Positions 5,707-57,830 of a stretch of 64,000 nt of DNA are shown piece by piece (positions within the stretch are counted from its first letter, which is position 1; every line of letters begins with the position of its first letter). Below the pieces are notes generated by a model. It saw nothing but the letters and a program-made list of their open reading frames with translations. It did no database searches and was not told where the DNA came from. Where the stretch lies: assembly GCA_964441265.1 (NCBI GenBank), contig CAYYKJ010000007.1, positions 1 through 64,000 on the forward strand, written 5' to 3'. The position numbers and the translations under genes are program-made. This DNA comes from an uncultured archaeon. Its GTDB lineage: Archaea; Aenigmatarchaeota; Aenigmatarchaeia; QMZP01; QMZT01.

Positions 5707-5925
5707 ACCTTAAGTCCCCCTTTAGGGCATTCTCAGTTCACAATATAATTTTGTATAGAGGTTTAGTAAATAAAATTTTAAAAGGATGATATCCGGTTTT
5801 TCCTGCGTGGCACAATCTGGATAACTGTGGAAAACCATGGATTTTTAAGTCACGGATCGAATTCATGTTTAAACATAAATTTCGAGAGACGACGTTAGAC
5901 AATTGATCAGGTCGTCATTCGATAA

Positions 5926-6393
5926 ATGGGGTGTTGCTGTATGGATTTCAAGCTGGCTACTGTGTTAGGTGTTGTCATGGCCGCTGTGGTCATATCTTCT
6001 GCTTCTTTCGTTTGGGTGTTTTCCGTTTCCATGGTGAGCCCGGTTTCGATGGCTCTCGTTATAATTCTTTCCCTGACCTTCGGATGGATATACTTCGGTA
6101 AGGAGGAATCGACCGCGAAAGAGGCGATGGCCCTGGGCATATTCTGGATCATAATAGCCATAATACTTGAGGCGGCGGCGGCGGTCGGGTTCTTCCAGCA
6201 GTCCGATTACTTCAAGGTCAACCCCTCCATATACGCGGGTTACCTGCTCATGCTGGTTTTTACGGTGGCGGCTTTCTTCCTGAGGAGAAGACTCGGAAAG
6301 TCCTCGGAAGAGCAGGCCGAGCCCGGAAAGGACAAGGAAAAAGAGATGGCAATGAGGGGCGAGGCATTGCTGGAGCCCTCAATCGCCTCCTGA
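5926..6393 (+). CDS. hypothetical membrane protein
   Basis: Hydrophobic segments with a charged C-terminus; start uncertain. Confidence 0.4.
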   Translation: MGCCCMDFKLATVLGVVMAAVVISSASFVWVFSVSMVSPVSMALVIILSLTFGWIYFGKEESTAKEAMALGIFWIIIAIILEAAAAVGFFQQSDYFKVNPSIYAGYLLMLVFTVAAFFLRRRLGKSSEEQAEPGKDKEKEMAMRGEALLEPSIAS

Positions 6394-6430: not shown

Positions 6431-7455
6431 GCTATAGATATAATTCGTGCGTATAGATGAGAGCTTGACACCGGCTCCCGGCGACGGGAGCGTTAAGTTT
6501 GAGGTAGGAGAATGCAAAACCCTTGTTGAAGCTCATATGAGGAGCTTTATGCGTAACGCCAATCCCAATTCCGGCTGATCCTGCCGGAGGCCACTGCTAT
6601 TCGGATTTGGCTAAGCCATGCTCGTTCTGGGTTAAACCAGAGCAAAGAGCTCAGTAACACGTAGTCAACCTGCCCTTGGGTCCGGACGAATCTCGGGAAA
6701 CTGAGGATAATGCCGGATAGGCAAAAAGATCTGGAAACGTGTGACAACTTGGATTTCAATCACGAGTTGTCCTTCGCCGGTTTGACTTTTTGTCCAACCA
6801 AGGATGGGACTGCGGCTGATTAGGTTGTTGCCAGGCTAAAATGGACTGACGTTCATTTCGAATGTCTTTCTTTAGATTCCTGGCAAGCCGATAATCAGTA
6901 CGGGCCTTGAGAGAGGAAGCCCGGAGATGGATTCTGAGACAAGAATCCAGGCCCTACGGGGTGCAGCAGGCGCGAAACTTTCCCAATGTGCGCAAGCATG
7001 AGGAAGAGATCCGGAGTGTTCTCCTTTTGGGGGAACTTTTGTCAAGTCCAAAAAAGATTGACGGCTGATTCTGTGAATCCATGCCGTCGCTCTGTGGTTA
7101 GCTTGGCGAATAAGTGGTGGGTAATACGGGTGCCAGCCGCCGCGGTAATACCCGAGCCACAAGTGGTGGCCACGTTTATTGGGCTTAAAGTGTTCGTAGC
7201 CGGTTCTGCCAGTCCTTGGTGAAATCATCTGGTAAACCAGGTGGCTTGCTGAGGATACTACAGGACTTGGGACCGGGAGAGGTCAAGGGTACTGACGGGG
7301 TAGGGGTAAAAAGCGATTGTTGACCCGGATTTTTCTGATCAGGTCAACCTTCCTTACATTCCTATAATCCTGTCAGGACCACCAGTGGCGAAGGCGCTTG
7401 ACTAGAACGGATCCGACGGTGAGGGACGAAAGCCAGGGGATCGAATGGGATTAGA

Positions 7456-7799
7456 TATGGGTTCAGGAAAAGGTATTTATTTCCAGTAATTAACTATAAA
7501 TAGATTAGAATGCCCAGTATTTCAAGTGATATTTGTAGGATGACTCTGAAGGACATATCAGTAAAAGGCAAGCGGAAATTGATTTCACAACAACTTCGAA
7601 GGAGATTTGCCAATATATACTTGAATATTTTAAAATAATTGGACTAAAAACAAGTGGCAGAGTCAGAAGCCGAAGAAAGAACAGGGAGTACGAAATAAGG
7701 ATATACGGCAAGGAAAATTTAATACTTTTTTCAAAACATGTCAAGATAAAACATCCTGATAAAATTGCCAGAATGAAGAAATTCCTGTCCCACTAAAAA
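7456..7799 (+). mobile_element. 16S intron 1 with decayed LAGLIDADG endonuclease remnant
   Basis: Inserted after GGATTAGATA and AT-rich. Two short out-of-frame reading frames resemble homing-endonuclease fragments (…EICQYILEYFKIIGLKTSGRV…EYEIRIYGKENLILF…). Confidence 0.45.
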
Positions 7800-8061
7800 C
7801 CCCAGTAGTCCTGGCTGTAAACGATACCCACTAGACATTAGGGATCTTACGTGGGTTCCTGGTGTCGCAGGAAAACCGCTAAGTGGGTCGCCTGGGAAGT
7901 ACGGTCGCAAGGCTGAAACTTAAGGGAATTGGCGGGGGAGCACACAAGGGGTGGAGGCTGCGGTTCAATTCGATTCAACGCGGGGAACCTTACCAGAGGC
8001 GAGGCAGGCACTCACTGTCACTAATGGTAAGGTTTATTAGCACCGTAATCAACAATTAAAC

Positions 8062-8640
8062 ATGAGGAACATAGCAGACCTCTCAAAAATAACACCGAAA
8101 GAAAGGGGATACCTGATTGGATTTTACATCGGAGACGGTAACATATTTGAACAAAATTCTTCAGGGATTTACAGGCTCAGATATTTTCTCGGCCTTAAAG
8201 AAAAACCAATACAGGAATCCCTTGTTGAAATATTGTCCAAGTTATTTGCGAATATAAGGACCTACGATGGACAGGGAAATACAATTGTAATTGAAATTCA
8301 TTCAAAACAGTTCATAACTTGGGTGAAAAACAACTGTACAAAGGATGGGATTAAAAACAAAAGCTCATCTAAAAGATTCAAAATTGGTGTTATAGAGGGT
8401 CTGATAGACAGCGATGGATATGTTCAAAGAAACTATGTTGAGATAACAACTGTCAATGAGAAACTGCGAAAAAATATTATTGAAATTTTGAGCGGTTTCA
8501 AAACAAAACCAAATGTTAGAAGTTATTCTTCTCCAATTTCCGGAAGAACCGGATGGAGAGTTGGTTTTTCTTTAAAAAACGGTGCTTTTAAACCTACCAA
8601 GTGGGTTCTTGCCCCTCAAACAGCAGAAAATGCTGCGTAA
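8062..8640 (+). CDS. LAGLIDADG homing endonuclease (double-motif) in 16S intron 2
   Basis: LIGFYIGDGNI and IEGLIDSDGYV motifs. Lies inside a 16S insertion (~8013-8679). Confidence 0.8.
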   Translation: MRNIADLSKITPKERGYLIGFYIGDGNIFEQNSSGIYRLRYFLGLKEKPIQESLVEILSKLFANIRTYDGQGNTIVIEIHSKQFITWVKNNCTKDGIKNKSSSKRFKIGVIEGLIDSDGYVQRNYVEITTVNEKLRKNIIEILSGFKTKPNVRSYSSPISGRTGWRVGFSLKNGAFKPTKWVLAPQTAENAA

Positions 8641-8795
8641 GGTTTACCATGAAGACATACCGTGCGCGCATCTGCAATGAAGGTCAGGTTGAAGGCCTTA
8701 CCAGACAAGCTGAGAAGTAGTGCATGGCCGTCGTCATTCCACGAGGGCAAAACCGGCATCTGATATTCTTCTTTTCGTCCGAAAAGCAGATAAGG

Positions 8796-9368
8796 ATGCC
8801 TCCCGAATTAAGAATCATGAAAACTGTTGGTTTTCAGAAAAAACAAATCAAATGCTCCGAAAATGATGCCTATATTTTAGGATTGTTTAGGGCAGACGGG
8901 TATACTTGGACAGGAACATTCGGAATAACTAATAGAAATCAGAAAATATTAGAAAAAGCTGCAAAAATCCTTTCAAAATTCGGCCAAAACAAATGGAGAA
9001 ATGATGAGAAAGGATTTTTCAGGGTTTGCATAACAAGTAGGCCCAGAAAAAGGGAATTTCTGAAGGCAATGGAAAATACAGAAAAATCATTAATTGATAA
9101 CAAATTAATGATTGCATCATATTTCGCAGGTAAATATGATGGAGATGGTTCTTATTGGAAAAAAACAAGACTGAGGTTCAAAATAACATACGGGAAACCT
9201 GAAAATATAGAATTTGATCAAAAGCTATTGCTCTCCGTTGGTATTTCAAGTAAAATAAGAAAATATAAAAATGCAAATGCATTTGACCTTGAAATATCAA
9301 GTGGTGATGCTTTAGCATTTTTTGACCTGATAAAAAATATTCGATTAAATGTCCTCTTGGAACGATAA
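8796..9368 (+). CDS. LAGLIDADG homing endonuclease (double-motif) in 16S intron 3
   Basis: ILGLFRADGYT and YFAGKYDGDGSY motifs. The ORF track starts at 8724 inside the exon; internal Met 8796 is more likely. Confidence 0.7.
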   Translation: MPPELRIMKTVGFQKKQIKCSENDAYILGLFRADGYTWTGTFGITNRNQKILEKAAKILSKFGQNKWRNDEKGFFRVCITSRPRKREFLKAMENTEKSLIDNKLMIASYFAGKYDGDGSYWKKTRLRFKITYGKPENIEFDQKLLLSVGISSKIRKYKNANAFDLEISSGDALAFFDLIKNIRLNVLLER

Positions 9369-9927
9369 AGTTCGTGCCGTGAGAGCTTGATGCTTTCATG
9401 TCATAAAGTGCCATGTTCCGGTAAAGGTGTCGTCTTAAGTGACGTAACGAACAAGACCCATACCTCATGTTGCTATCCAACTCTGTCGGAGCACTCATGA
9501 GGGACCGCTGGCGATAAGCCAGAGGAAGGTGTGGTCGACGGCAGGTCCGTATGCCCTGAATCCTCTGGGTAACACGCGGCCTACAATGGATGGGACAATG
9601 GGATGCCACTCCGAAAGGAGGAGCTAATCCTTCAAACCCATTCCTGGTCCGGATCGAGGGCTGCAACCCGCCCTCGTGAAGCCGAAATCCCTAGTAGTCG
9701 CTGGTTAGCAAGTGCGAAAGTCGCCGCGAAAGCGGTAGCGCTTTCGGGTCTAAAATCTAGCGTCGAATAAGTTCCTGCTCCTTGCACACACTGCCCGTCA
9801 AGCCATCCGAGTGGAGTTTTGGCGAGGTCTTCCCTTCGGGGAGGATCAAACCACAACTTTGCAAGGAGGGCTAACTCCAATAGTAATATTTTGGAGAACA
9901 ATTATTATTGGGGGCCTAAAGTCGTAA

Positions 9928-10067
9928 AATGGCTAGATGGGCAATTTGAGAAGTCGCAAAACGATTTCTATGACATCTATAACGTGTGTATAAACGGATG
10001 AAGCCTAGCTTGTAGCGCTTCATCAGACTCATGTATAGTTAGGAATATCATCTAGCTGTTCGATAAA
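9928..10067 (+). mobile_element. small ORF-less intron near 16S 3' end
   Basis: A ~140 nt insertion separates AAGTCGTAA from CAAGGTAGCCGTA. Confidence 0.4.
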
Positions 10068-10196
10068 CAAGGTAGCCGTACGGGAACGTGCGGCTGGATC
10101 ACCTCCTTATATATTTCGAATGACAACTTATTTCGAAAATTTAGGTTGTCTCTCGAAACATTCAACAGGGTGCATACTTCTCCTACCGCAAAAATC

Positions 10197-10402
10197 GGGC
10201 CGGTAGATCAACGGTGCGTTTCAAAAGGGAGCTGACATTTCACCCCACAACGAAACGTTTCGGGGTGTTGTGGGTCAATCGCTCCCGCTGCGTTAAAGAT
10301 CGCTGCCCTTGCAAGGCAGAGGCTTCGGGTTCAAAGCGACCCTTTTGCTCAAAGAAGAAACAGCTGATGCTTGCGGGGGTCGGGAAAATCCCGACCGGTC
10401 CA
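10197..10402 (+). tRNA. tRNA-Ala(TGC) in the 16S-23S spacer with two non-canonical introns (D-loop and T-loop)
   Basis: Acceptor GGGCCGG/CCGGTCC with G3:U70 and A73. D-stem GATC/GATC. Anticodon arm CTGCC-CTTGCAA-GGCAG. T-stem TCGGG/CCCGA with the T-loop TTCAAA...T split by an insertion. Confidence 0.6.
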
Positions 10403-12005
10403 TGAGAAATTGCATGGCGGGTCCGCCGGAGAGCAAATCCGGGCCGGGCTGGCCGCATTCGCGCACGTAAATATTTAAATATATAGTAACATATAATACA
10501 TGCTCTCTGCAGCCGTGCAGGGCTGGGAGGGCCAAATCGAATGCATTGGTTGACTATCAGACTGTTCAGAGTCGGTCACGCCCCGGTGACAGCGGGCTTG
10601 GTTGGCAGGCAGATAGTCGAGGCGACTCGGTATCTATTTTCTGGACAGTTTCGGGAATACCATGCTTGTAATGTTGAAATGAGGCTCGTTACTGCAAATA
10701 ACGGGCTGATTTGAGAAGGATGATGACCACTTTGACGGTCACGTGAGCACCGGCATAGCAGGGCGCGCCTCGGCGGGCCGTGTTACCGGCTGCGATGAAA
10801 GAGTGAACACCATTAGAGTCCTTTGATGATTCCATAGGCGAGTTGTCCCGACCACAAGGGTCTGTTACGCTGCATGGTGGCTGACTTGGCTCGGAAAACG
10901 AAGAGGGACGTGGCAAGCTGCGAAAAGCCCGGGGTAGGTGCAAGCAGCCTTTGAACCCGGGATTTCCTAATGGGACTTCCCAGCATTTGCTATTCGCAAT
11001 AGCGAAGGTTGACGGCCTGGATTGAAACATCTTATTAGGGCCAGGAAGAGAAAGCAATCGCGATTCCCTGAGTAAAGGCGATCGAAAGGGGAACAGGACA
11101 AACCGAATCCCCTATTGAGAGATAGGGGACATGTGGGGTTTGGACCTGCGCTCGGCCCAACTTCCCAACCCGAAGTGACCTGGAACGGTTCACGACAAAG
11201 GGTGAGAGTCCCGTAGGGATAAGGAAGAGGGTTGATATCAGGTATCCGGAGTACCGTTGGTTGGAAATCCAGCGGGAATGCGGGAGACACTAACTCCCAA
11301 TCCTAAACATAATCCGAGTCCGATAGCGTACTAGTACGGTGACGGAAAGTCGAAAAGCATCCTTAACAGGAGCTGAAAAGAGCCTAAAGCCATGTAGTTA
11401 TAGGTTGGTAAGGCACATGCTTGCATGTGTTTTGCCGTCCGTTTTGAAACACGCGGCAAGGAGTTTATCTCCGTGGCGAGGATAACGTGATGGTATCCAT
11501 AGCGAAAGCGAGAACCCCGCAGCTTGCGAGGGGGTCAGGTGTGAAAGCGCCTACAGTCACGGGGATAATACCTGAAGCCGGTCGATCTAGCCCTGGGCAG
11601 GGTGAAGTCTAGCGAAAGCTGGATGGAGGCCCGTTACCGTTGCTGAGATTCAAATCGCTCAGGTGACCTGGGGCTAGGAGTGAAAATGGGGTGACGGCCA
11701 GAATTCATCTGTTTAGGCCGTCGTTCCTTCAACGCTAATCGAGATCGGCAATAGCTGGTTCCTCTCTAAATGTATCTGAGTACAGCCTGGCCGGAGGTAG
11801 AATATGGGGTAAAGATACTGATTGCGTAACCAAGGATCGAAAGGTCCAGTTGTGCTGTCAAACTCAGAATCCATGTTCGCCGTAGAAGGCTGGAGTGGGG
11901 GTGCCGGGGTAAGCTCGGTATCCGAAAGGGAAAGAACCCAGACTGAAGTTAAGGTCCCTAAATGTTGTCTAATCGAAGAAAAGCGTCATCAACCATAAAC
12001 AATAG

Positions 12006-12037
<32 letters not shown>

Positions 12038-12404
12038 CGAGCGAAGGCTTGGATTTATCGGATTAAGCCTTCATTCGAAAGAGAGAGTGTGTAATAACTC
12101 ACCTATCTAGGTTGATGGCCTTGAAAATGGACGGGACTAAGGCAACTACCGATACTTTGGATCACGAAAGTGATAGCGTAGGGAGGTGTCCTGCTGGGGC
12201 AGAAGTTCTTCCGTAAGGGGGAATGGACCTTGCAGGAATAAGAATCTTGCTGATAGTAGCAGCACTAGTGGAGTGAGAATCTCCACCACCTAAAGGGCTA
12301 GGGTTCCTCAGCAACGATTAAAAGCTTGACGCTGAATGGTCAGCGTCGGTTTGTCGAATCAGCTGAGGGTTAGTCGGTCCTAAGGCGTCTCCTAACCGGA
12401 GGAT

Positions 12405-12436
<32 letters not shown>

Positions 12437-13090
12437 CATGGAAGTACGTGCGGCGACGCAAGCCCGGTTCCAGACTTTTCGGGATAGGCTGACCATTTCG
12501 ATGGTTAACCCGTTAAGCCTGCGGAGTACCGTAATGGTGAGAAGCAGGTGAAGCGGGGAATAGCCCGTGTATTCGGGTTTGGCTGAATCCTGGAAACCGT
12601 GAAAATGGAAACGGGAAGGATCTTTCATGTCCGTACCGAGAACCGTTACTGGTGACCCTTGCTGAAAAGGTTAAGGTGTATTAGGTTAAATTACCCTAGG
12701 GAATTCGGCAAATTAGCCCCGAATCTTTGGTATGAGGGGTGCCTAGTCCCTTGGCTCAGCCAAGAAGACTAGGTCGCAGTGACAAGGGGGGTCCGACTGT
12801 TTAACAAATGGGAAGCGCAGATTTAATGATTATCTGTTCTTTTCGTGCTTCAGTCGGAAATCGAACCCTCGGACAGGCCAAGTTAGTATGAAAGGACGTT
12901 TTTACAAATTTCAAACTTTCCGTTCTTCCCAGTTAAAAAACATAGGGGGCTGCTAGTCGGAAACGATTTGTATAGCTCCTGAGGCCTGCCCAGTGCGAGT
13001 GTGTCAAGCTGGACTTCAATCCAGTGAAGCCCTCGTAAACGGCGGCGGTAACTCTGACCGTTGACTTAGGCGGTCACAAAATTTGGCTAT

Positions 13091-13738
13091 ATGCGGGAAC
13101 TCCATAGTATTCCGGGTCCTGAGAAAGGAAAAATCCCGGAAACGATGACGGATAATCCGCAGGAAACTGTTTGCTTCATGGGGGTGGTTACCATGAAGAA
13201 AGTCGAACAAGGGTTTAGTAAACTCTTGAGAAAAAAGCGTTACCTGAGATTTTATATCTTGGGTTTCGTTGATGCCGAAGGTTGTTTTAGTGTGTCATTG
13301 AAGCAACAGAAAACGACGAGATTCGGCTGGGTATTGGATCCGTTATTCCAGGTAACTCAACACAAAAATAACAGGATTGTACTCGAAAAGATAAAAGGAG
13401 AATTGGGTTGCGGAAGGATAATTGATAAACCCGGTCAAAAAGATACACTGATATATTTGGTTGATAACCGAAGACAACTGAACGAGAAAATAATTCCCTT
13501 CTTTGAAAAGTACAGGCTTGTTTCGAAGGACAGTGATTTCCAGAAATTCAAGAGAATCGTCAGAGGACTTGAAAAAAAGGAACACGGCGAATTGGAATCT
13601 TTCTTGAAACTGATCAAAAAAGCCTTCGAAATGAATCTGGGAGGGAAACAAAGAAGATACAAACTCGAAGAAGTCTTGAAAAAATTGGGAAGCAGACAGA
13701 ATCCCCAGAGGCCATACGCCAGACACTCAAGTGAGTGA
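13091..13738 (+). CDS. LAGLIDADG homing endonuclease (single-motif) in 23S intron
   Basis: ILGFVDAEGCF motif; the ORF lies inside a 23S insertion. The true start may be an internal Met. Confidence 0.75.
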   Translation: MRELHSIPGPEKGKIPETMTDNPQETVCFMGVVTMKKVEQGFSKLLRKKRYLRFYILGFVDAEGCFSVSLKQQKTTRFGWVLDPLFQVTQHKNNRIVLEKIKGELGCGRIIDKPGQKDTLIYLVDNRRQLNEKIIPFFEKYRLVSKDSDFQKFKRIVRGLEKKEHGELESFLKLIKKAFEMNLGGKQRRYKLEEVLKKLGSRQNPQRPYARHSSE

Positions 13739-14398
13739 AGATATGGTCCGACTCTTACAGTAATGTAAGTAAGTTGCTTAAGGTAGCGTAGTCCCTTGCC
13801 GATTAATTGTCGGCCTGCATCAAGGGCTTAACGAGATCCCCGCTGTCCTGGGGTAATGCCTAGTGAAATTAATTGTCCAGTGCATATTCTGGAGACCTTC
13901 AGTGGGACGAGAAGACCCCATTGAGCTTTACTGCAGTCTACTGCTGTGATATGATAATGGTTGCACAGTGTAGGTGGGAGCGTCGAACCCGCGTCTTTGG
14001 GTGCGGGGAATGCGACAATGTAACACCACCCTACCGTTCTCATATTGCTTATCCTTCGGGAGACACCAGTTGATGGGCAGTTTGGCTGGGGCGGTACGCC
14101 TCTGATAAGGGATCAGAGGTGCCCTAAGTTCGGCTCATTCCGGTCAGAAATCGGAATTAGAGTGCAAGAGCAAAAGCCGGACTGATAGGATTCTGCAAAG
14201 TGAGGAATCCTAACGCGAAAGCGTGGTCTAGCGATCCGCTGTGTCTTTATTAGATGAAAGCCAGCTCTGACAGAAAAGTTACCATGGGGATAATCAACCA
14301 GAGAGTTGATAGGTTTTGAAAGCCATGTCAGGGGATATCTTTTCCTTTCTGTATTTTGAGACGAAAGTAAGATAAATCCCATTAATGAAATAATAAGC

Positions 14399-14953
14399 AT
14401 GGATTTGATTGAAAAGGGATTCGTTTTCGGTGCCAGCGAAGACGGAACTGTTTACCATAGACCTTCAAGAAATCAATATAACATAGAAATCGAGCAGAAA
14501 GTTCAAAAATGGCTTGAGATTGTGAAGAAAGCAGTGCAGAAAACATATAACAAAAACGTGAGGATAGCAAGGACTTCTAAAGGTTATTTCAGGTTGCTTG
14601 TTTATTCCAAAAAACTGCATAATGATCTCAAATCTTTCAGAAAGGATTATTCGAAAATCCTAACCGAAAACAAAGACTTCCAGACCGGCTTCCTTCGCGG
14701 ATTTTTTGATGCGGAGGGAACGGTCCACAACAAAAGATATTCGATTAGGGTGGCATCGAAGAATAAGCAAACAATCCTTGTAATCAAGAAAATGCTTAAT
14801 AAATTCAATATTAAAACCGGTAAAATTCATGCCGATAAGACGGCATATGTTTTGCCTCTGTACGGAAAAGATAATCTAGAAAGATTCGATTCCGTTGTCA
14901 GTTTTAGACATGAAGAAAAGAAAGAAAGACTTTCAAAACTTCTCTCTGGTTGA
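14399..14953 (+). CDS. LAGLIDADG homing endonuclease (single-motif) in 23S intron
   Basis: LRGFFDAEGTV motif; inserted after GGGGATAA in 23S domain V. Confidence 0.75.
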   Translation: MDLIEKGFVFGASEDGTVYHRPSRNQYNIEIEQKVQKWLEIVKKAVQKTYNKNVRIARTSKGYFRLLVYSKKLHNDLKSFRKDYSKILTENKDFQTGFLRGFFDAEGTVHNKRYSIRVASKNKQTILVIKKMLNKFNIKTGKIHADKTAYVLPLYGKDNLERFDSVVSFRHEEKKERLSKLLSG

Positions 14954-15525
14954 TCCCGAAAATGGAGTCGTGACGCGTGAGAGTCCATAGCGTCATAACT
15001 TGGTTAACTTTCTAAAAGGTCTTTGATTTCCAAGTTAGACATGGATATATCGACCGCGTTCGTTGCTTCTCCGCCGTCGGCTCGGCTCTTCCTGGACGTG
15101 CAGCAGCGTCCAAGGGTGGGGGTGTTCACCCATCAAAGAGCCACGTTAGCTGGGTTAAATACGGTGCGAGCCAGTATGGTCTATATCTACTGAAGGTGTC
15201 GGGAACCTGAGGGGAAGAAGCACTCAGTACGAAAGGAACAGTGCATCGTGGCCTCTGGTGTACCAGTTGTGTATACATCGCTGGGTAGCTATGCCATTGT
15301 GGATAAGGGCTGAAAGCATCTAAGCTCGAAGCCGCTCCCGAAAATAGGTTCCCACTCCTCAAACTGATTGGCAACAACCGGTGCGAGGGAAAGGATCCGG
15401 TATACGACCGGGTTGATAGAATCGGGGTGTAAGTACCGAGGCAACGAGGTATTCAGCCTACGATCACTAATACTCCAAATGGCCCTGGTTAAAGGGACAA
15501 CTCGCCGCTATTATTTTTTTATCAT

Positions 15526-55695: not shown

Positions 55696-56292
55696 ATGAT
55701 AAGGGCGGTAATATTCGACATGGGTGGAGTGATGGTCAAAAACAAATCAGAGGCGGTTTTCAGCAGACTCGCAGAGAAACTGGGCGTCGATCCCGCTTCT
55801 TTGGACGATTTGCGAAAGGAAAATTACCGGGAGATGCTGATAGGGGAAAAATCTTCGAGGCAGTTTGCAGAGATGATCAGCCGGCGTTTTAATCTCAGTG
55901 CCGATGTTATCGGGGAATGGAAGAAATCCTATTTAGAAGTGATGCCGGTAAACGAAGATCTTGCCGAGATGACTGGGAGCTTAAAGAGAATATATAAAGT
56001 GGCGATTATTTCGAACGTCCCTGATCTGCATGCTGACATTAATAAAAAGAGAGGCGTTTTTTCTCATTTCGAGCCGGCATTGATATCCTGCGACGTAGGT
56101 ATGGCCAAGCCCGATAGGGGAATATTCGAACTCGCCCTGGAAAAACTGGACATGAAAGCTGAAGAATGCATTTTCATCGACGATCGCGAGAAGTTTCTGA
56201 AGACTCCGGAAGAGATGGGCTTCCGCACGATACACTTCCGGAGCAACGGGCAATTGAAGAAAGATCTTGTGAAACTCGGGGTTCAGATTTAA
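55696..56292 (+). CDS. HAD-superfamily hydrolase, subfamily IA
   Basis: Motif I FDMGGV, motif II S/T (ISN), motif III K…, motif IV DD. Confidence 0.75.
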   Translation: MIRAVIFDMGGVMVKNKSEAVFSRLAEKLGVDPASLDDLRKENYREMLIGEKSSRQFAEMISRRFNLSADVIGEWKKSYLEVMPVNEDLAEMTGSLKRIYKVAIISNVPDLHADINKKRGVFSHFEPALISCDVGMAKPDRGIFELALEKLDMKAEECIFIDDREKFLKTPEEMGFRTIHFRSNGQLKKDLVKLGVQI

Positions 56293-56333
56293 AAGAATTC
56301 ATTCCCATTCTATACCACCGGGAGAGGGGTGAC

Positions 56334-57830
56334 ATGTTTTCTGAGGAAGACCGGAAGATTCTGGAGAATCACGTGACCAGTATAGACGGGGATATATACG
56401 CGATTTACAACCTCCCTCCCGAAGTGGTCGCCGTTCTTTTCGCCTACGTCTCCCGCTCGCCGGCGAGCTTCAGGGAGAACCTGCTCAAGCTGATAAAGAG
56501 CAGGGACCTCGACATGGGGGAACTGATCACCAGTTTCCGGAGGAAGGGGATGGATTACGGGGAGGCGAAGGAGAAGGCCAGGAAATTCCACGAGAAATGG
56601 GTCGTTGGATACGGCCACTCCTCCGTGGCCGAGCACGCCTTCGCAAGCATAGCCATAGAGAACGTGTCCATTCTCGCCACCAAGGTGATCGAGGACAACC
56701 GCCTGGCCTCCTACACCGAGAAGTCCACCAGATACCAGGTTTTCGACAGGGACAGGTACTACAAACCCGGAAGGATCATGGATTCGGAATTCTCCGGGGA
56801 GTATGAAGACTTCTGCAATTCACTTTTCGGTTTCTACACGGAAAACATGCCAAAGGTGATCGGCCATTTCAAGAAGGCCCATCCGAAACCGGAGGACATG
56901 AGCGAAAGGTTGTACGAATCCGTCTCCAAGGCGAGGGCCTGCGACGTCATGAGGTATGCCCTCCCGGCGGCCACCCTGACGAACCTGGGCATGACCATAA
57001 ACGCCCGCTCTCTGGAGCACGCCATCCGGAAACTGCTCTCCCATCCCCTGCGGGAGATGAACGAGACGGGGAAGGGAATCAGGGGGGAGGTCACCAAGAT
57101 CATCCCCACACTGGTGAAATACGCGGACAGGAACGAGTATATCGCTGAAACGAACAATGCGATGAAATCCTTCGGGATGGGCGGGGATCGGGAAGAGGGG
57201 AAGGCGGTCTCGCTGGTGGAATACGACAGGGAAGCGGAAGAAAAGCTCGTCTCGGCTATCCTGTACAGATATTCAAAAAGGTCCTATGGTCAGATAAAAG
57301 AATCGGTTAAAAAAATGCCTGCGGGAGAGAAGGAGGAAGTGATCGATGAGTTCCTGAAGAGGATGGAGAAGCACGACATTCCCATGCGTGAGCTGGAGCA
57401 CGTTTACTACACCTTCGACATCCTGTTGGACTACGGGGCATTCAGGGACATACAGCGCCACAGGATGTGCACCCAGACAAACCAGGAGCTGGGCACGGGT
57501 CATGGATATTCGGTACCCAAGGAGATGGAAGAGGTCGGGATAAAGGAAGGATTCACGGATCTCATGGAAAGGGCCAAGGAGCTGTTCGGTAAGATTTCAA
57601 GGAAGTTCCCCAAGGAGGCGCAGTATCTGGTCCCTCTCGCCTTCCGCAAGCGCGTTCTGATCACCTGGAACCTCAGGGAGCTGTTCTATTTCGTGCGCCT
57701 GCGCTCCGGCAAGGGGGGCCACGAATCCTACAGAAAAATCGCCTGCCGGGTATATGATGAGCTCGAAAAGGTTCATCCCCTTATGGCGAAGTACATCACG
57801 GTAGAAAGAATTAATGGTCCTGCAAGGTAG
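56334..57830 (+). CDS. tandem ThyX-like (flavin-dependent thymidylate synthase family) protein
   Basis: Half 1 has GHSSVAEHAFASIAIENVS…DNRLASYTEKSTRY (RHR replaced by DNR). Half 2 has FRDIQRHRMCTQTNQ (RHR present, SxRY missing). The ORF track starts at 56166, overlapping the HAD gene; Met 56334 is more likely. Confidence 0.5.
   Translation: MFSEEDRKILENHVTSIDGDIYAIYNLPPEVVAVLFAYVSRSPASFRENLLKLIKSRDLDMGELITSFRRKGMDYGEAKEKARKFHEKWVVGYGHSSVAEHAFASIAIENVSILATKVIEDNRLASYTEKSTRYQVFDRDRYYKPGRIMDSEFSGEYEDFCNSLFGFYTENMPKVIGHFKKAHPKPEDMSERLYESVSKARACDVMRYALPAATLTNLGMTINARSLEHAIRKLLSHPLREMNETGKGIRGEVTKIIPTLVKYADRNEYIAETNNAMKSFGMGGDREEGKAVSLVEYDREAEEKLVSAILYRYSKRSYGQIKESVKKMPAGEKEEVIDEFLKRMEKHDIPMRELEHVYYTFDILLDYGAFRDIQRHRMCTQTNQELGTGHGYSVPKEMEEVGIKEGFTDLMERAKELFGKISRKFPKEAQYLVPLAFRKRVLITWNLRELFYFVRLRSGKGGHESYRKIACRVYDELEKVHPLMAKYITVERINGPAR

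Follow-up and report, generated by a model that had tools for sequence, protein, structure and literature searches.

How many intervening sequences can one archaeal rRNA operon hold, by which routes would they be removed, and where do the shortest of them come from? These questions are raised by a 64,000-nucleotide (nt) stretch of DNA from an uncultured archaeon (GTDB Aenigmatarchaeota; QMZP01; QMZT01), positions 1-64,000 of the forward strand of contig CAYYKJ010000007.1 in assembly GCA_964441265.1, called the window below. It contains a single operon with genes for 16S rRNA, tRNA-Ala and 23S rRNA, which carries about 19 intervening sequences, very probably introns, 18 of them predicted bulge-helix-bulge (BHB) introns and one a predicted group I intron. 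A first-pass annotation had seen here an rRNA operon full of mobile introns, in which four LAGLIDADG genes are intact and one copy is decayed, and that reading holds. Features lie on the + strand of the window unless stated otherwise.

Interrupted 16S and 23S rRNA genes

The Rfam model of archaeal small subunit rRNA (RF01959) matches at 6568-9917 (+) with 929 bits, and that of archaeal large subunit (LSU) rRNA (RF02540) at 10853-15490 (+) with 2243 bits. Both models are covered end to end, and these colinear matches confirm the archaeal 16S-23S operon where it had been placed. The small subunit match stops early and loses 190 nt because of two further insertions near the 16S 3' end; read from the sequence, the true 3' end, GGATCACCTCCT, is at ~10108. 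The 16S rRNA gene (6568-10108) spans 3541 nt and the 23S rRNA gene (10853-15490) 4638 nt, compared with Rfam model lengths of 1478 and 2987.

Related operons were obtained from contigs encoding homologues of ORF1, an open reading frame (ORF) for one of the endonucleases (L003 and L005-L009), and from a DNA pattern scan (L058, L072 and L090). Scanning genome contigs for variants of the 16S 3'-terminal helix returned mostly bacteria, was not lineage-specific, and was useful only for L058, L072, L073 and L090. Junctions were mapped with blastn, MAFFT and junction-by-junction global alignments, with numbering by E. coli rrnH (Ec).

Comparison with the relatives and E. coli placed twelve insertions in the 16S rRNA gene, where the first-pass annotation had about four, and seven in the 23S rRNA gene, where it had at least two, giving about 19 in all. 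The earlier count was about threefold low because twelve mini-introns of 36-60 nt and a 130-nt ORF-less 23S intron were overlooked. Besides the mini-introns, four insertions carry an intact endonuclease ORF, one carries a remnant, and two are ORF-less shells. Without the insertions, about 1450 nt of 16S and about 2932 nt of 23S rRNA remain, which are colinear with their E. coli counterparts at 66% identity and have no gap of 25 nt or more; the break in colinearity expected of a chimera was not seen in this alignment. Since removal of the insertions leaves 1450 of 3541 nt, 59% of the 16S rRNA gene is intervening sequence. Several exons are reduced to micro-exons of 9 nt (8620-8628), 58 nt (8678-8735), 13 nt (9369-9381), 7 nt (9920-9926) and 28 nt (14961-14988). 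The second of these is the micro-exon of ~55 nt already noticed between the first two ORF-bearing introns, and it is real.

Bulge-helix-bulge geometry at the junctions

The BHB test asked, at the alignment-defined junctions, for two 3-nt bulges on opposite strands, a 4-bp helix between them, and an implied product of exact length. A strict pass was a central helix H of 4/4 bp with a flanking helix (h or h') of at least 3 bp and exact length, and random pseudo-insertions in the same rRNA served as the null. Thirteen of the 18 insertions outside the group I intron pass the strict test, against 1.8% of the null (binomial P = 2e-19). A finder requiring both flanking helices missed most motifs, which were recovered when one flanking helix was accepted. 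The insertion at 8629-8677 (S1010b) passes after a 1-nt shift of its 3' boundary. Near misses include S452 and L2449, with H of 3/4 bp and flanking helices of 10 and 12 bp, and S198 and L2475, with H of 4/4 bp and short flanking helices. Boundaries in the related operon L005 are less precise; there, the test is passed by 12 of 47 short insertions against 2.1% of the null (P = 2e-10).

Polarity is uniform in the 18 BHB insertions, exon positions -6 to -3 pairing with four nucleotides near the intron 3' end. The splice sites are held in two A-rich bulges of 3 nt, of the form N-A/A at the 5' side and A-N/N at the 3' side. These 18 insertions are predicted archaeal BHB-type introns. The first-pass annotation had implicitly taken every intron as BHB, which stands for the 18 and fails for the 23S intron with the LAGLIDADG_1 ORF, a predicted group I intron. 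At the BHB introns, the tRNA-splicing endonuclease would cut both bulges, an RtcB-type ligase would join the exons, and the introns would be released as circles.

Several insertions interrupt sites where an unspliced insert is expected to disrupt function, such as the GTPase-centre junction, the 690 loop and the step from G1491 to A1492. The related operon L090 has a 38-nt insert in the universally conserved 530 loop (16S ~560-600, E. coli 526), between GCCAGCCGCC and GCGGUAAUAC; it is a strong hint that short inserts would have to be spliced out.

Insertions in the 16S rRNA gene

Four mini-introns lie in the 5' half of the 16S rRNA gene. The first (6737-6782, 46 nt, ~Ec198) belongs to the UGAC-hairpin family described below, scores 30 bits with the covariance model, and shows a relaxed BHB motif with H of 4 bp and weak flanking helices. 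The second (6842-6877, 36 nt, ~Ec265) forms a perfect hBHBh' motif with h of 8, H of 4 and h' of 3 bp. The third (7054-7099, 46 nt, ~Ec452) has the core AAGAUUGACGGC...GCCGUCGCUCUG, H of 3/4 bp, h of 10 bp and a covariance model score of 35 bits. Both the second and the third are absent from L090. The fourth (7312-7359, 48 nt) is located in the h23 (690) loop and has a BHB with H of 4 bp.

The larger 16S introns begin with a 342-nt BHB intron at 7457-7798, inserted between GGAUUAGAU and ACCC (Ec793/794), which contains an endonuclease remnant (7542-7796), has H and h' of 4 bp each, and is absent from L090. The BHB intron with ORF1 (8002-8619, 618 nt) is found in the h33/34 region with H of 4 bp (gagg/CCUC) and h' of 6 bp; L090 lacks it as well. 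cmscan placed this intron differently, taking a GGUAAGG inside the intron for the exon strand, and comparison with L090, L003 and L005 led to rejection of that placement. Nine nt 3' of the ORF1 intron is a 49-nt mini-intron (8629-8677) with H of 4 bp (gcag/CUGC) and h' of 4 bp, absent from L003 and present in L005. The BHB intron with ORF2 (8736-9368, 633 nt) interrupts GUCGUC and AGUUCGUG (Ec~1066), has H of 4 and h' of 5 bp, and is found in neither L090 nor L003. It is followed after 13 nt by a 43-nt mini-intron at 9382-9424 (Ec~1075-1081; H 4, h' 4), again absent from L090.

Towards the 3' end, a 45-nt mini-intron at 9711-9755 (~Ec1362) has a BHB with H of 4 and h of 6 bp. Another, of 46 nt (9874-9919), separates G1491 from A1492 in the decoding centre; its motif is HBh' with h' of at least 12 bp, and it is absent from L090 and L003. 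The last 16S insertion is an ORF-less BHB intron of 140 nt (9927-10066) between AAGUCGUA and ACAAGG (Ec1498/1499), with H of 4 and h' of 12 bp, absent from L003 and present in L090. Its closing helix shows compensatory changes, being GCUAGAUG/CAUCUAGC in the window and GCGAGACG/CGUCUCGC in L090.

Insertions in the 23S rRNA gene and a predicted group I intron

Six of the seven 23S insertions are predicted BHB introns. The mini-intron at 11687-11733 (47 nt, ~Ec784) has the core GGGGUGACGGCC...GGCCGUCGUUCC, a BHB with H of 4 and h' of 12 bp, and a covariance model score of 33 bits. A second 47-nt mini-intron (12037-12083) occupies the junction of the GTPase-associated centre (Ec~1085), and a third, of 38 nt (12321-12358, ~Ec1326), has the core AAAGCUUGACGCUGA...UCAGCGUCGG. 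The ORF-less BHB intron at 12808-12937 (130 nt, ~Ec1782) forms an hBHBh' motif with h of 4, H of 4 and h' of 7 bp, and is missing in L058. The BHB intron with ORF4 (14292-14960, 669 nt) lies between GGGGAU and AAUGG (Ec2449), with H of 3/4, h of 4 and h' of 12 bp, and is likewise missing in L058. Located 28 nt 3' of it is a 60-nt mini-intron (14989-15048, ~Ec2475; H 4, h 2), absent from L058 and L003 and present in L008 and L005.

The remaining insertion, of 715 nt at 13062-13776, carries ORF3; comparison with L058 and E. coli places it after U1923 in E. coli numbering. In its P1 helix, the exon gaccgU13061 pairs with the intron GCGGUC (13071-13076) so that a U.G wobble falls on the splice site, and the intron's final base is G13776. 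The Rfam model Intron_gpI (RF00028) matches in full at 13495-13770, including the GAAGAUAUGGUCC core, with 33.3 bits and an E value of 1.2e-6 when the intron is searched alone. In a permissive Rfam scan of the operon this was the sole extra match (E 1.5e-5), and no group I signal was found in the other introns. By the P1 wobble, the terminal G and a below-threshold Rfam match to the core, the insertion is a predicted group I ribozyme-type intron, and it is presumably self-splicing. At site LSU/1923, 10 archaeal group I introns of subtype IB4 have been listed, among them an Aenigmarchaeota example, IB4.28 (PMC6125680).

LAGLIDADG endonucleases

The four LAGLIDADG ORFs are intact where they had been placed, all of them scoring above the Pfam cut-offs. 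ORF1 (8062-8640, 192 aa) and ORF2 (8796-9368, 190 aa; its start may be 8817, as in the gene call in L001) each match LAGLIDADG_3 (PF14528) over two stretches, in agreement with the double motif reported for them, at 45 and 51 bits (cut-off 22.5), and are read as two-domain monomers. ORF4 (14399-14953, 184 aa) matches the same family with 62 bits. ORF3 (13091-13738) matches LAGLIDADG_1 (PF00961) with 80.8 bits (cut-off 23.1), and its likely start is 13193 (M35; 181 aa, public annotation). In the translations, the motifs are GFYIGDGN and GLIDSDGY in ORF1, GLFRADGY and KYDGDGSY in ORF2, GFVDAEGC in ORF3, and GASEDGT and GFFDAEGT in ORF4. An acidic residue ends each LAGLIDADG helix, and the unbroken frames of 181-192 aa are similar in length to their homologues.

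Both 23S ORFs had been called single-motif, which is correct for the single-domain ORF3. ORF4 is read as a two-domain, I-DmoI-like protein because it aligns over nearly its full length with I-DmoI (residues 18-167 with I-DmoI residues 27-178) and has two acidic motifs (ASEDGT and FFDAEGT). A PDB search showed that ORF3 resembles each half of I-SmaMI/I-OnuI, I-CeuI, and the 169-aa homodimeric chain 3e54, named 'rRNA intron-encoded endonuclease'. The 173 homologues listed for ORF3 include few that are named, these being 'archaeon', Nitrososphaera and Micrarchaeota, and no homologue was found in the fetched related loci. For ORF1, ORF2 and ORF4, the nearest relative found is encoded at the same rRNA site of another genome. 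Identities are 66% (L003), 58% (L005) and 51% (L008) for ORF1, 58% (L005) for ORF2, and 62% (L003) for ORF4. The four proteins are barely related to each other. All four presumably have homing activity; intact LAGLIDADG enzymes would cut intron-less alleles, and repair would then spread the intron.

The ORF1 frame crosses its own 3' splice site (8619/8620), the 9-nt micro-exon and then 12 nt of the next mini-intron, and therefore its last codons overlap BHB and exon sequence. Its homologue in L003, which lacks the mini-intron at 8629-8677, ends within the exon. The decayed copy noticed earlier does exist in the 7457-7798 intron, although it is not visibly frameshifted as had been thought. L008 encodes a 231-aa endonuclease at this site, whose residues 148-231 share 55% identity (E 2e-31) with the 84 in-frame codons (7542-7796) of the decayed copy. 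Because the N-terminal domain is gone and the C-terminal half is in frame, the copy is best described as a deletion remnant.

Presence and absence in related operons

Every large insertion of the window is missing from at least one relative. L090 is without the Ec793, ORF1 and Ec1066 introns. L058 is without the Ec1782 and Ec2449 introns and has an insert of ~43 nt at U1923 in place of the group I intron. In L003 there is no Ec1066, Ec1491, Ec1498 or group I intron. Other introns are present in relatives and absent from the window, such as a 612-nt endonuclease intron near Ec908 in L090 and a 565-nt endonuclease intron at Ec1782 in L003.

At two sites the same intron position differs in size among genomes. 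At Ec1782 the insertion is 565 nt with an ORF in L003, 130 nt in the window and 0 in L058, and at Ec1085 it is 676 nt in L008, 83 nt in L003 and 47 nt in the window. These decay series show shrinkage at a given site to be one source of short introns. No protein homology to the L003 same-site endonuclease was found in the 130-nt Ec1782 or the 140-nt Ec1498 intron.

The locus L005 (8329-19286; ENA ERZ27250192 k141_1274815; also L006, L007 and L137) has a 16S rRNA gene of 3.9 kb and a 23S rRNA gene of 6.4 kb. It is far more interrupted than the window, with about 23 insertions of at least 20 nt in the 16S and about 43 in the 23S rRNA gene, mostly of 30-50 nt. These are about 66 insertions, compared with 12 mini-introns in the window.

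A family of mini-introns

Eight of the 12 mini-introns are in the 16S rRNA gene, and 11 are no longer than 49 nt. All are ORF-less hairpins with BHB geometry. Four lie within 7-28 nt of a larger intron, with 9, 13 and 28 nt separating three of them from the ORF1, ORF2 and ORF4 introns on their 5' side. Many share the core CAGAUUGACG...CGUCUUUCUG. The consensus is A-CAGA-UU-GACGNN-loop-NNCGUC-UU-UCUG, followed by a site-specific 4-nt tail and two bulge nucleotides. In the window the motif is clear at 7054, 11687, 12321, 6842 and 6737; it is very clear in L005, where the core recurs at more than 25 different rRNA sites, and is found also in L003, L090 and L058. A reading of the UGAC motif as a kink-turn or C/D box was rejected, since GAC forms Watson-Crick pairs with GUC and neither a tandem G.A nor a C/D box is present.

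A covariance model, R1, was built from 23 mini-intron copies (alignment A1). Six window mini-introns were built into the family model or clearly match it, as do at least 20 insertions of L005. Searched against the 64 kb of the window, R1 gave nothing significant outside the operon region. Across 94 kb of related loci, its matches were only on the rRNA sense strand (L003, L005, L058 and L090) and included copies outside the training set; in the more distant L008 and L072 there was no match.

Two hairpins outside mature rRNA also match R1, at 5880-5924 (-) and, in the 16S 3' trailer, at 10114-10158 (+). The latter scores 21.8 bits (E 0.003), and its stem is very like that of the 6737 mini-intron. 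Both share the flanks UUCGAAUGAC...GUCUCUCGAAA. The hairpin on the - strand is intergenic, just upstream of a hydrophobic-looking 155-aa ORF. Each may be an inserted copy, a regulatory hairpin or a chance match.

Metagenomes scanned with an exact mini-intron pattern returned 59 loci, of which four have rRNA mini-introns belonging to this lineage (L137, L159, L164 and L178), the rest being unrelated hairpins or chance matches; the scan says little about the spread of the family. Among the loci, L131, L132, L134 and about 30 other human-gut metagenome loci share an identical 34-nt hairpin, ACAGATTGACGTTAAAGTAAAAAACGTCTTTTTG, which resembles an intrinsic terminator of bacteria and has no relation to the archaeal mini-introns.

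The core shared across sites suggests intron proliferation. It is possible, and we propose it tentatively, that the mini-introns are a non-autonomous 'BHB cassette' that has proliferated to dozens of 16S, 23S and tRNA positions within one Aenigmarchaeota lineage. The cassette would consist of the conserved hairpin and the 4-nt tail, and pairing of the tail with exon sequence that directly precedes an A-rich loop would suffice. It would spread by transposition or reverse splicing, aided by co-conversion beside endonuclease-bearing introns. If so, every transcript would give rise to numerous copies of one small circular RNA with a conserved sequence.

Weighing of alternative explanations

Several points weigh against the picture of BHB introns, a group I intron and a proliferating family given above. 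Splicing of every insertion is a prediction from the sequence, and five of the 18 BHB motifs are relaxed. Pfam scans of 21 larger ORFs found no splicing endonuclease or ligase genes in the 64-kb window. In variable regions, the E. coli numbering of the insertions is approximate. The Intron_gpI score of 33 bits is below the Rfam gathering score of 50, probably owing to the ORF, which overlaps the core and breaks it up. R1 has its two matches outside mature rRNA, and the hairpin with its U-rich tail is not fully family-specific, because the exact pattern matches unrelated bacterial hairpins.

The insertions of 36-60 nt might instead be expansion segments kept in mature rRNA, or intervening sequences excised without ligation to leave a fragmented rRNA. 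Most of them do sit at hairpin tips, the usual location of expansion segments, and form stable hairpins. However, the exact geometry of a 4-bp helix and 3-nt bulges at alignment-defined junctions is far above chance, close relatives lack mini-insertions at the same positions, and micro-exons of 7-13 nt between insertions would not function as expansions. Some insertions, moreover, are off the helix tips, in single-stranded stretches or junctions that are essential (G1491/A1492, the GTPase-centre junction, Ec~1075, and the 530 loop of L090), which makes this explanation very unlikely. Still less credible, and in our view extremely improbable, is that the operon is a pseudogene or an assembly chimera with working rRNA genes elsewhere. 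The intron load is extreme and the contig is metagenome-assembled, but the exons are complete and colinear with universally conserved motifs, and the BHB motifs and processing stems are intact. An assembly chimera is also argued against by the short contigs L001 and L002, independent assemblies from different sequencing runs, which are 100% identical to the window over its densest part, across ORF1, the micro-exon and ORF2. A similar interrupted architecture is found in relatives from other samples, on contigs of 15-330 kb. Sequence of the window is present in sequencing runs SRR7048218 and SRR7048220, and relatives are present in ERZ27250192/193/208. That the 13062-13776 insertion is a BHB intron too, its group I resemblance being vestigial, is quite unlikely. 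Pairing into a weak BHB (H 4, h 2, h' 3) is possible one nucleotide away from its junction, L058 has its mini-insert of ~43 nt at or near the site, and decay of group I into BHB introns has been proposed (PMC6125680). Nevertheless, the product of that BHB would differ by one nucleotide from the expected length, while the P1 U.G wobble coincides with the 5' junction, the intron ends in G, and Rfam matches the conserved J8/7-P7 core. ORF3, in addition, is of the LAGLIDADG_1 type, with named homologues from Micrarchaeota and Nitrososphaera, phyla with LSU/1923 and 1931 group I introns (PMC6125680).

The likeness among the mini-introns may be due to convergent selection, for example if the splicing endonuclease, the ligase or an assembly factor needs a hairpin, each mini-intron being an independently decayed endonuclease intron. 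The decay series at Ec1782 and Ec1085 are of the kind this explanation calls for, pairwise similarity among the window mini-introns is barely above that of shuffled sequence, and conservation is confined to the stem base and the flanks. Yet the conserved part is primary sequence (CAGAUU-GACG...CGUC-UUUCUG) and not just structure, and unrelated endonuclease introns are not expected to decay to the same 20 nt at more than 25 rRNA sites of L005 and again in L003, L090, L058 and the window. Transposition of BHB introns among tRNA genes, moreover, has a precedent (Fujishima 2010, as given in PMC4090602). We regard convergence as rather unlikely, and spread of a cassette remains our tentative reading of the mini-introns.

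Spacer tRNA, processing stems and neighbouring genes

The operon encodes a spacer tRNA-Ala(UGC) with a G3.U70 pair at 10197-10402. It is interrupted by a D-loop intron of 81 nt (10216-10296), with BHB H of 4/4 bp and an outer helix of 4 bp, and by a T-loop insertion of ~53 nt (~10336-10388). The spacer tRNA-Ala of L003 has an intact D-arm and a 14-nt T-loop insert only, and that of L090 has an intron at the canonical position together with a T-loop insert; the T-loop insertion is common to all three. Despite this spacer tRNA, ARAGORN found no tRNA in the 64-kb window or in the related loci.

The 16S rRNA gene is flanked by a pre-16S processing stem that forms the same BHB geometry as the introns, with a central UGCA/UGCA helix and bulges AAA and UAC. 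Its 5' strand (6503-6530; GGUAGGAGAA, UGCA, bulge AAA, CCCUUGUUGAA) pairs, according to RNAduplex, as a canonical BHB with the 3' strand at 10161-10187 (UUCAACAGGG, UGCA, bulge UAC, UUCUCCUACC). A 13-nt perfect inverted repeat, GGCGAGUUGUCCC / GGGACAACUCGCC, lies at 10837-10849 and 15494-15506, a few nucleotides from the 23S ends, and is presumably the 23S processing stem. In L003, the nearest relative for which there are data, the archaeal RNase P RNA is located directly 3' of the 23S rRNA gene (5886-6192; Rfam RF00373, 124 bits), and no Rfam match to it was obtained in the corresponding scanned part of the window (up to 19000).

The neighbouring prolyl-tRNA synthetase (ProRS) is 78% identical to a 'Candidatus Aenigmarchaeota archaeon' protein, and most other named top matches are from the same phylum. 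By these ProRS homologues the host is, as far as can be told, an uncultured, Aenigmarchaeota-like DPANN archaeon. Other genes examined in the window are ordinary archaeal housekeeping genes. A ThyX (Thy1 family) ORF at 56166-57830 encodes 554 aa with two Thy1 stretches. ThyX proteins are usually about half that length, and the ORF would suggest a tandem duplication or an insertion.

Comparison with known systems

Endonuclease-bearing rRNA introns, hairpin mini-introns and archaeal (DPANN) group I introns are each already known. One close parallel is found in the rRNA BHB introns of Thermoproteales and Desulfurococcales, including the Desulfurococcus mobilis 23S intron that encodes I-DmoI. As in the window, these have BHB junctions, one- or two-domain LAGLIDADG ORFs, remnants and ORF-less shells, and insertions within GGAUUAGAUACCC and other conserved stretches (described in general in PMC4496867), and ORF4 aligns lengthwise with I-DmoI. 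Their hosts, however, are thermophilic crenarchaea, whereas the present host is a mesophile-like DPANN archaeon (Aenigmarchaeota). Thirteen loci have been catalogued across all surveyed taxa (PMC4496867), compared with 12 sites in the single 16S rRNA gene described here, most of which are at positions off that list.

In Thermoproteales 16S rRNA genes, hairpin introns of <50 nt lie a few nucleotides from endonuclease introns, together with which they undergo co-conversion (Jay and Inskeep 2015, PMC4496867). The mini-introns resemble these 'HP' introns in size, hairpin, BHB context and a neighbouring endonuclease intron (1205/1213 and 901/908 there, distances of 9, 13 and 28 nt here), and their position beside endonuclease introns fits co-conversion during homing. 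They differ in being far more numerous per gene (eight in the 16S) and in having a primary-sequence core conserved across sites, in both rRNAs, a tRNA and several genomes, which PMC4496867 does not describe. A search of open-access papers and preprints brought up no account of a conserved family of mini-introns in the rRNA of DPANN archaea. The group I intron shares the LSU/1923 site with archaeal IB4/IA3 introns (Nawrocki, Jones and Eddy 2018, PMC6125680); its match is to the generic Rfam model, the one run here, at 33.3 bits, below the gathering threshold.

Near-identical short BHB introns also occur at differing positions of Thermoproteales tRNA genes, which implies transposition, with the BHB requirement defining the targets (Fujishima 2010, as summarised in PMC4090602). 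The likeness is in near-identical short BHB introns at different positions of different stable-RNA genes. The hosts there, according to the same summary, are tRNA genes of a crenarchaeal order, whereas here they are DPANN 16S and 23S rRNA genes, with at least one related-looking copy in tRNA-Ala. Gain of BHB introns has so far been addressed mainly through those tRNA introns, and if the mini-intron family transposes, it would offer a tractable natural system for the gain of protein-spliced (BHB) introns. Universal 16S primers and the usual programs for finding rRNA and tRNA fail on genes of this kind, so that the lineage will be under-counted in surveys.

Heavily interrupted rRNA genes, some with LAGLIDADG, are also known in the ultrasmall, host-dependent organisms of the candidate phyla radiation (CPR/Patescibacteria; PMC11270868). 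These, in contrast, are bacteria without a described BHB splicing pathway, and their insertions are described as group I introns or as excised without ligation. Set against these systems, the present operon combines BHB and group I introns in one 23S rRNA gene, has more than half of its 16S rRNA gene as intron, and has micro-exons down to 7-9 nt. Its mini-introns are conserved in primary sequence over many rRNA sites and at least four related genomes, and this family and the intron density appear to be new.

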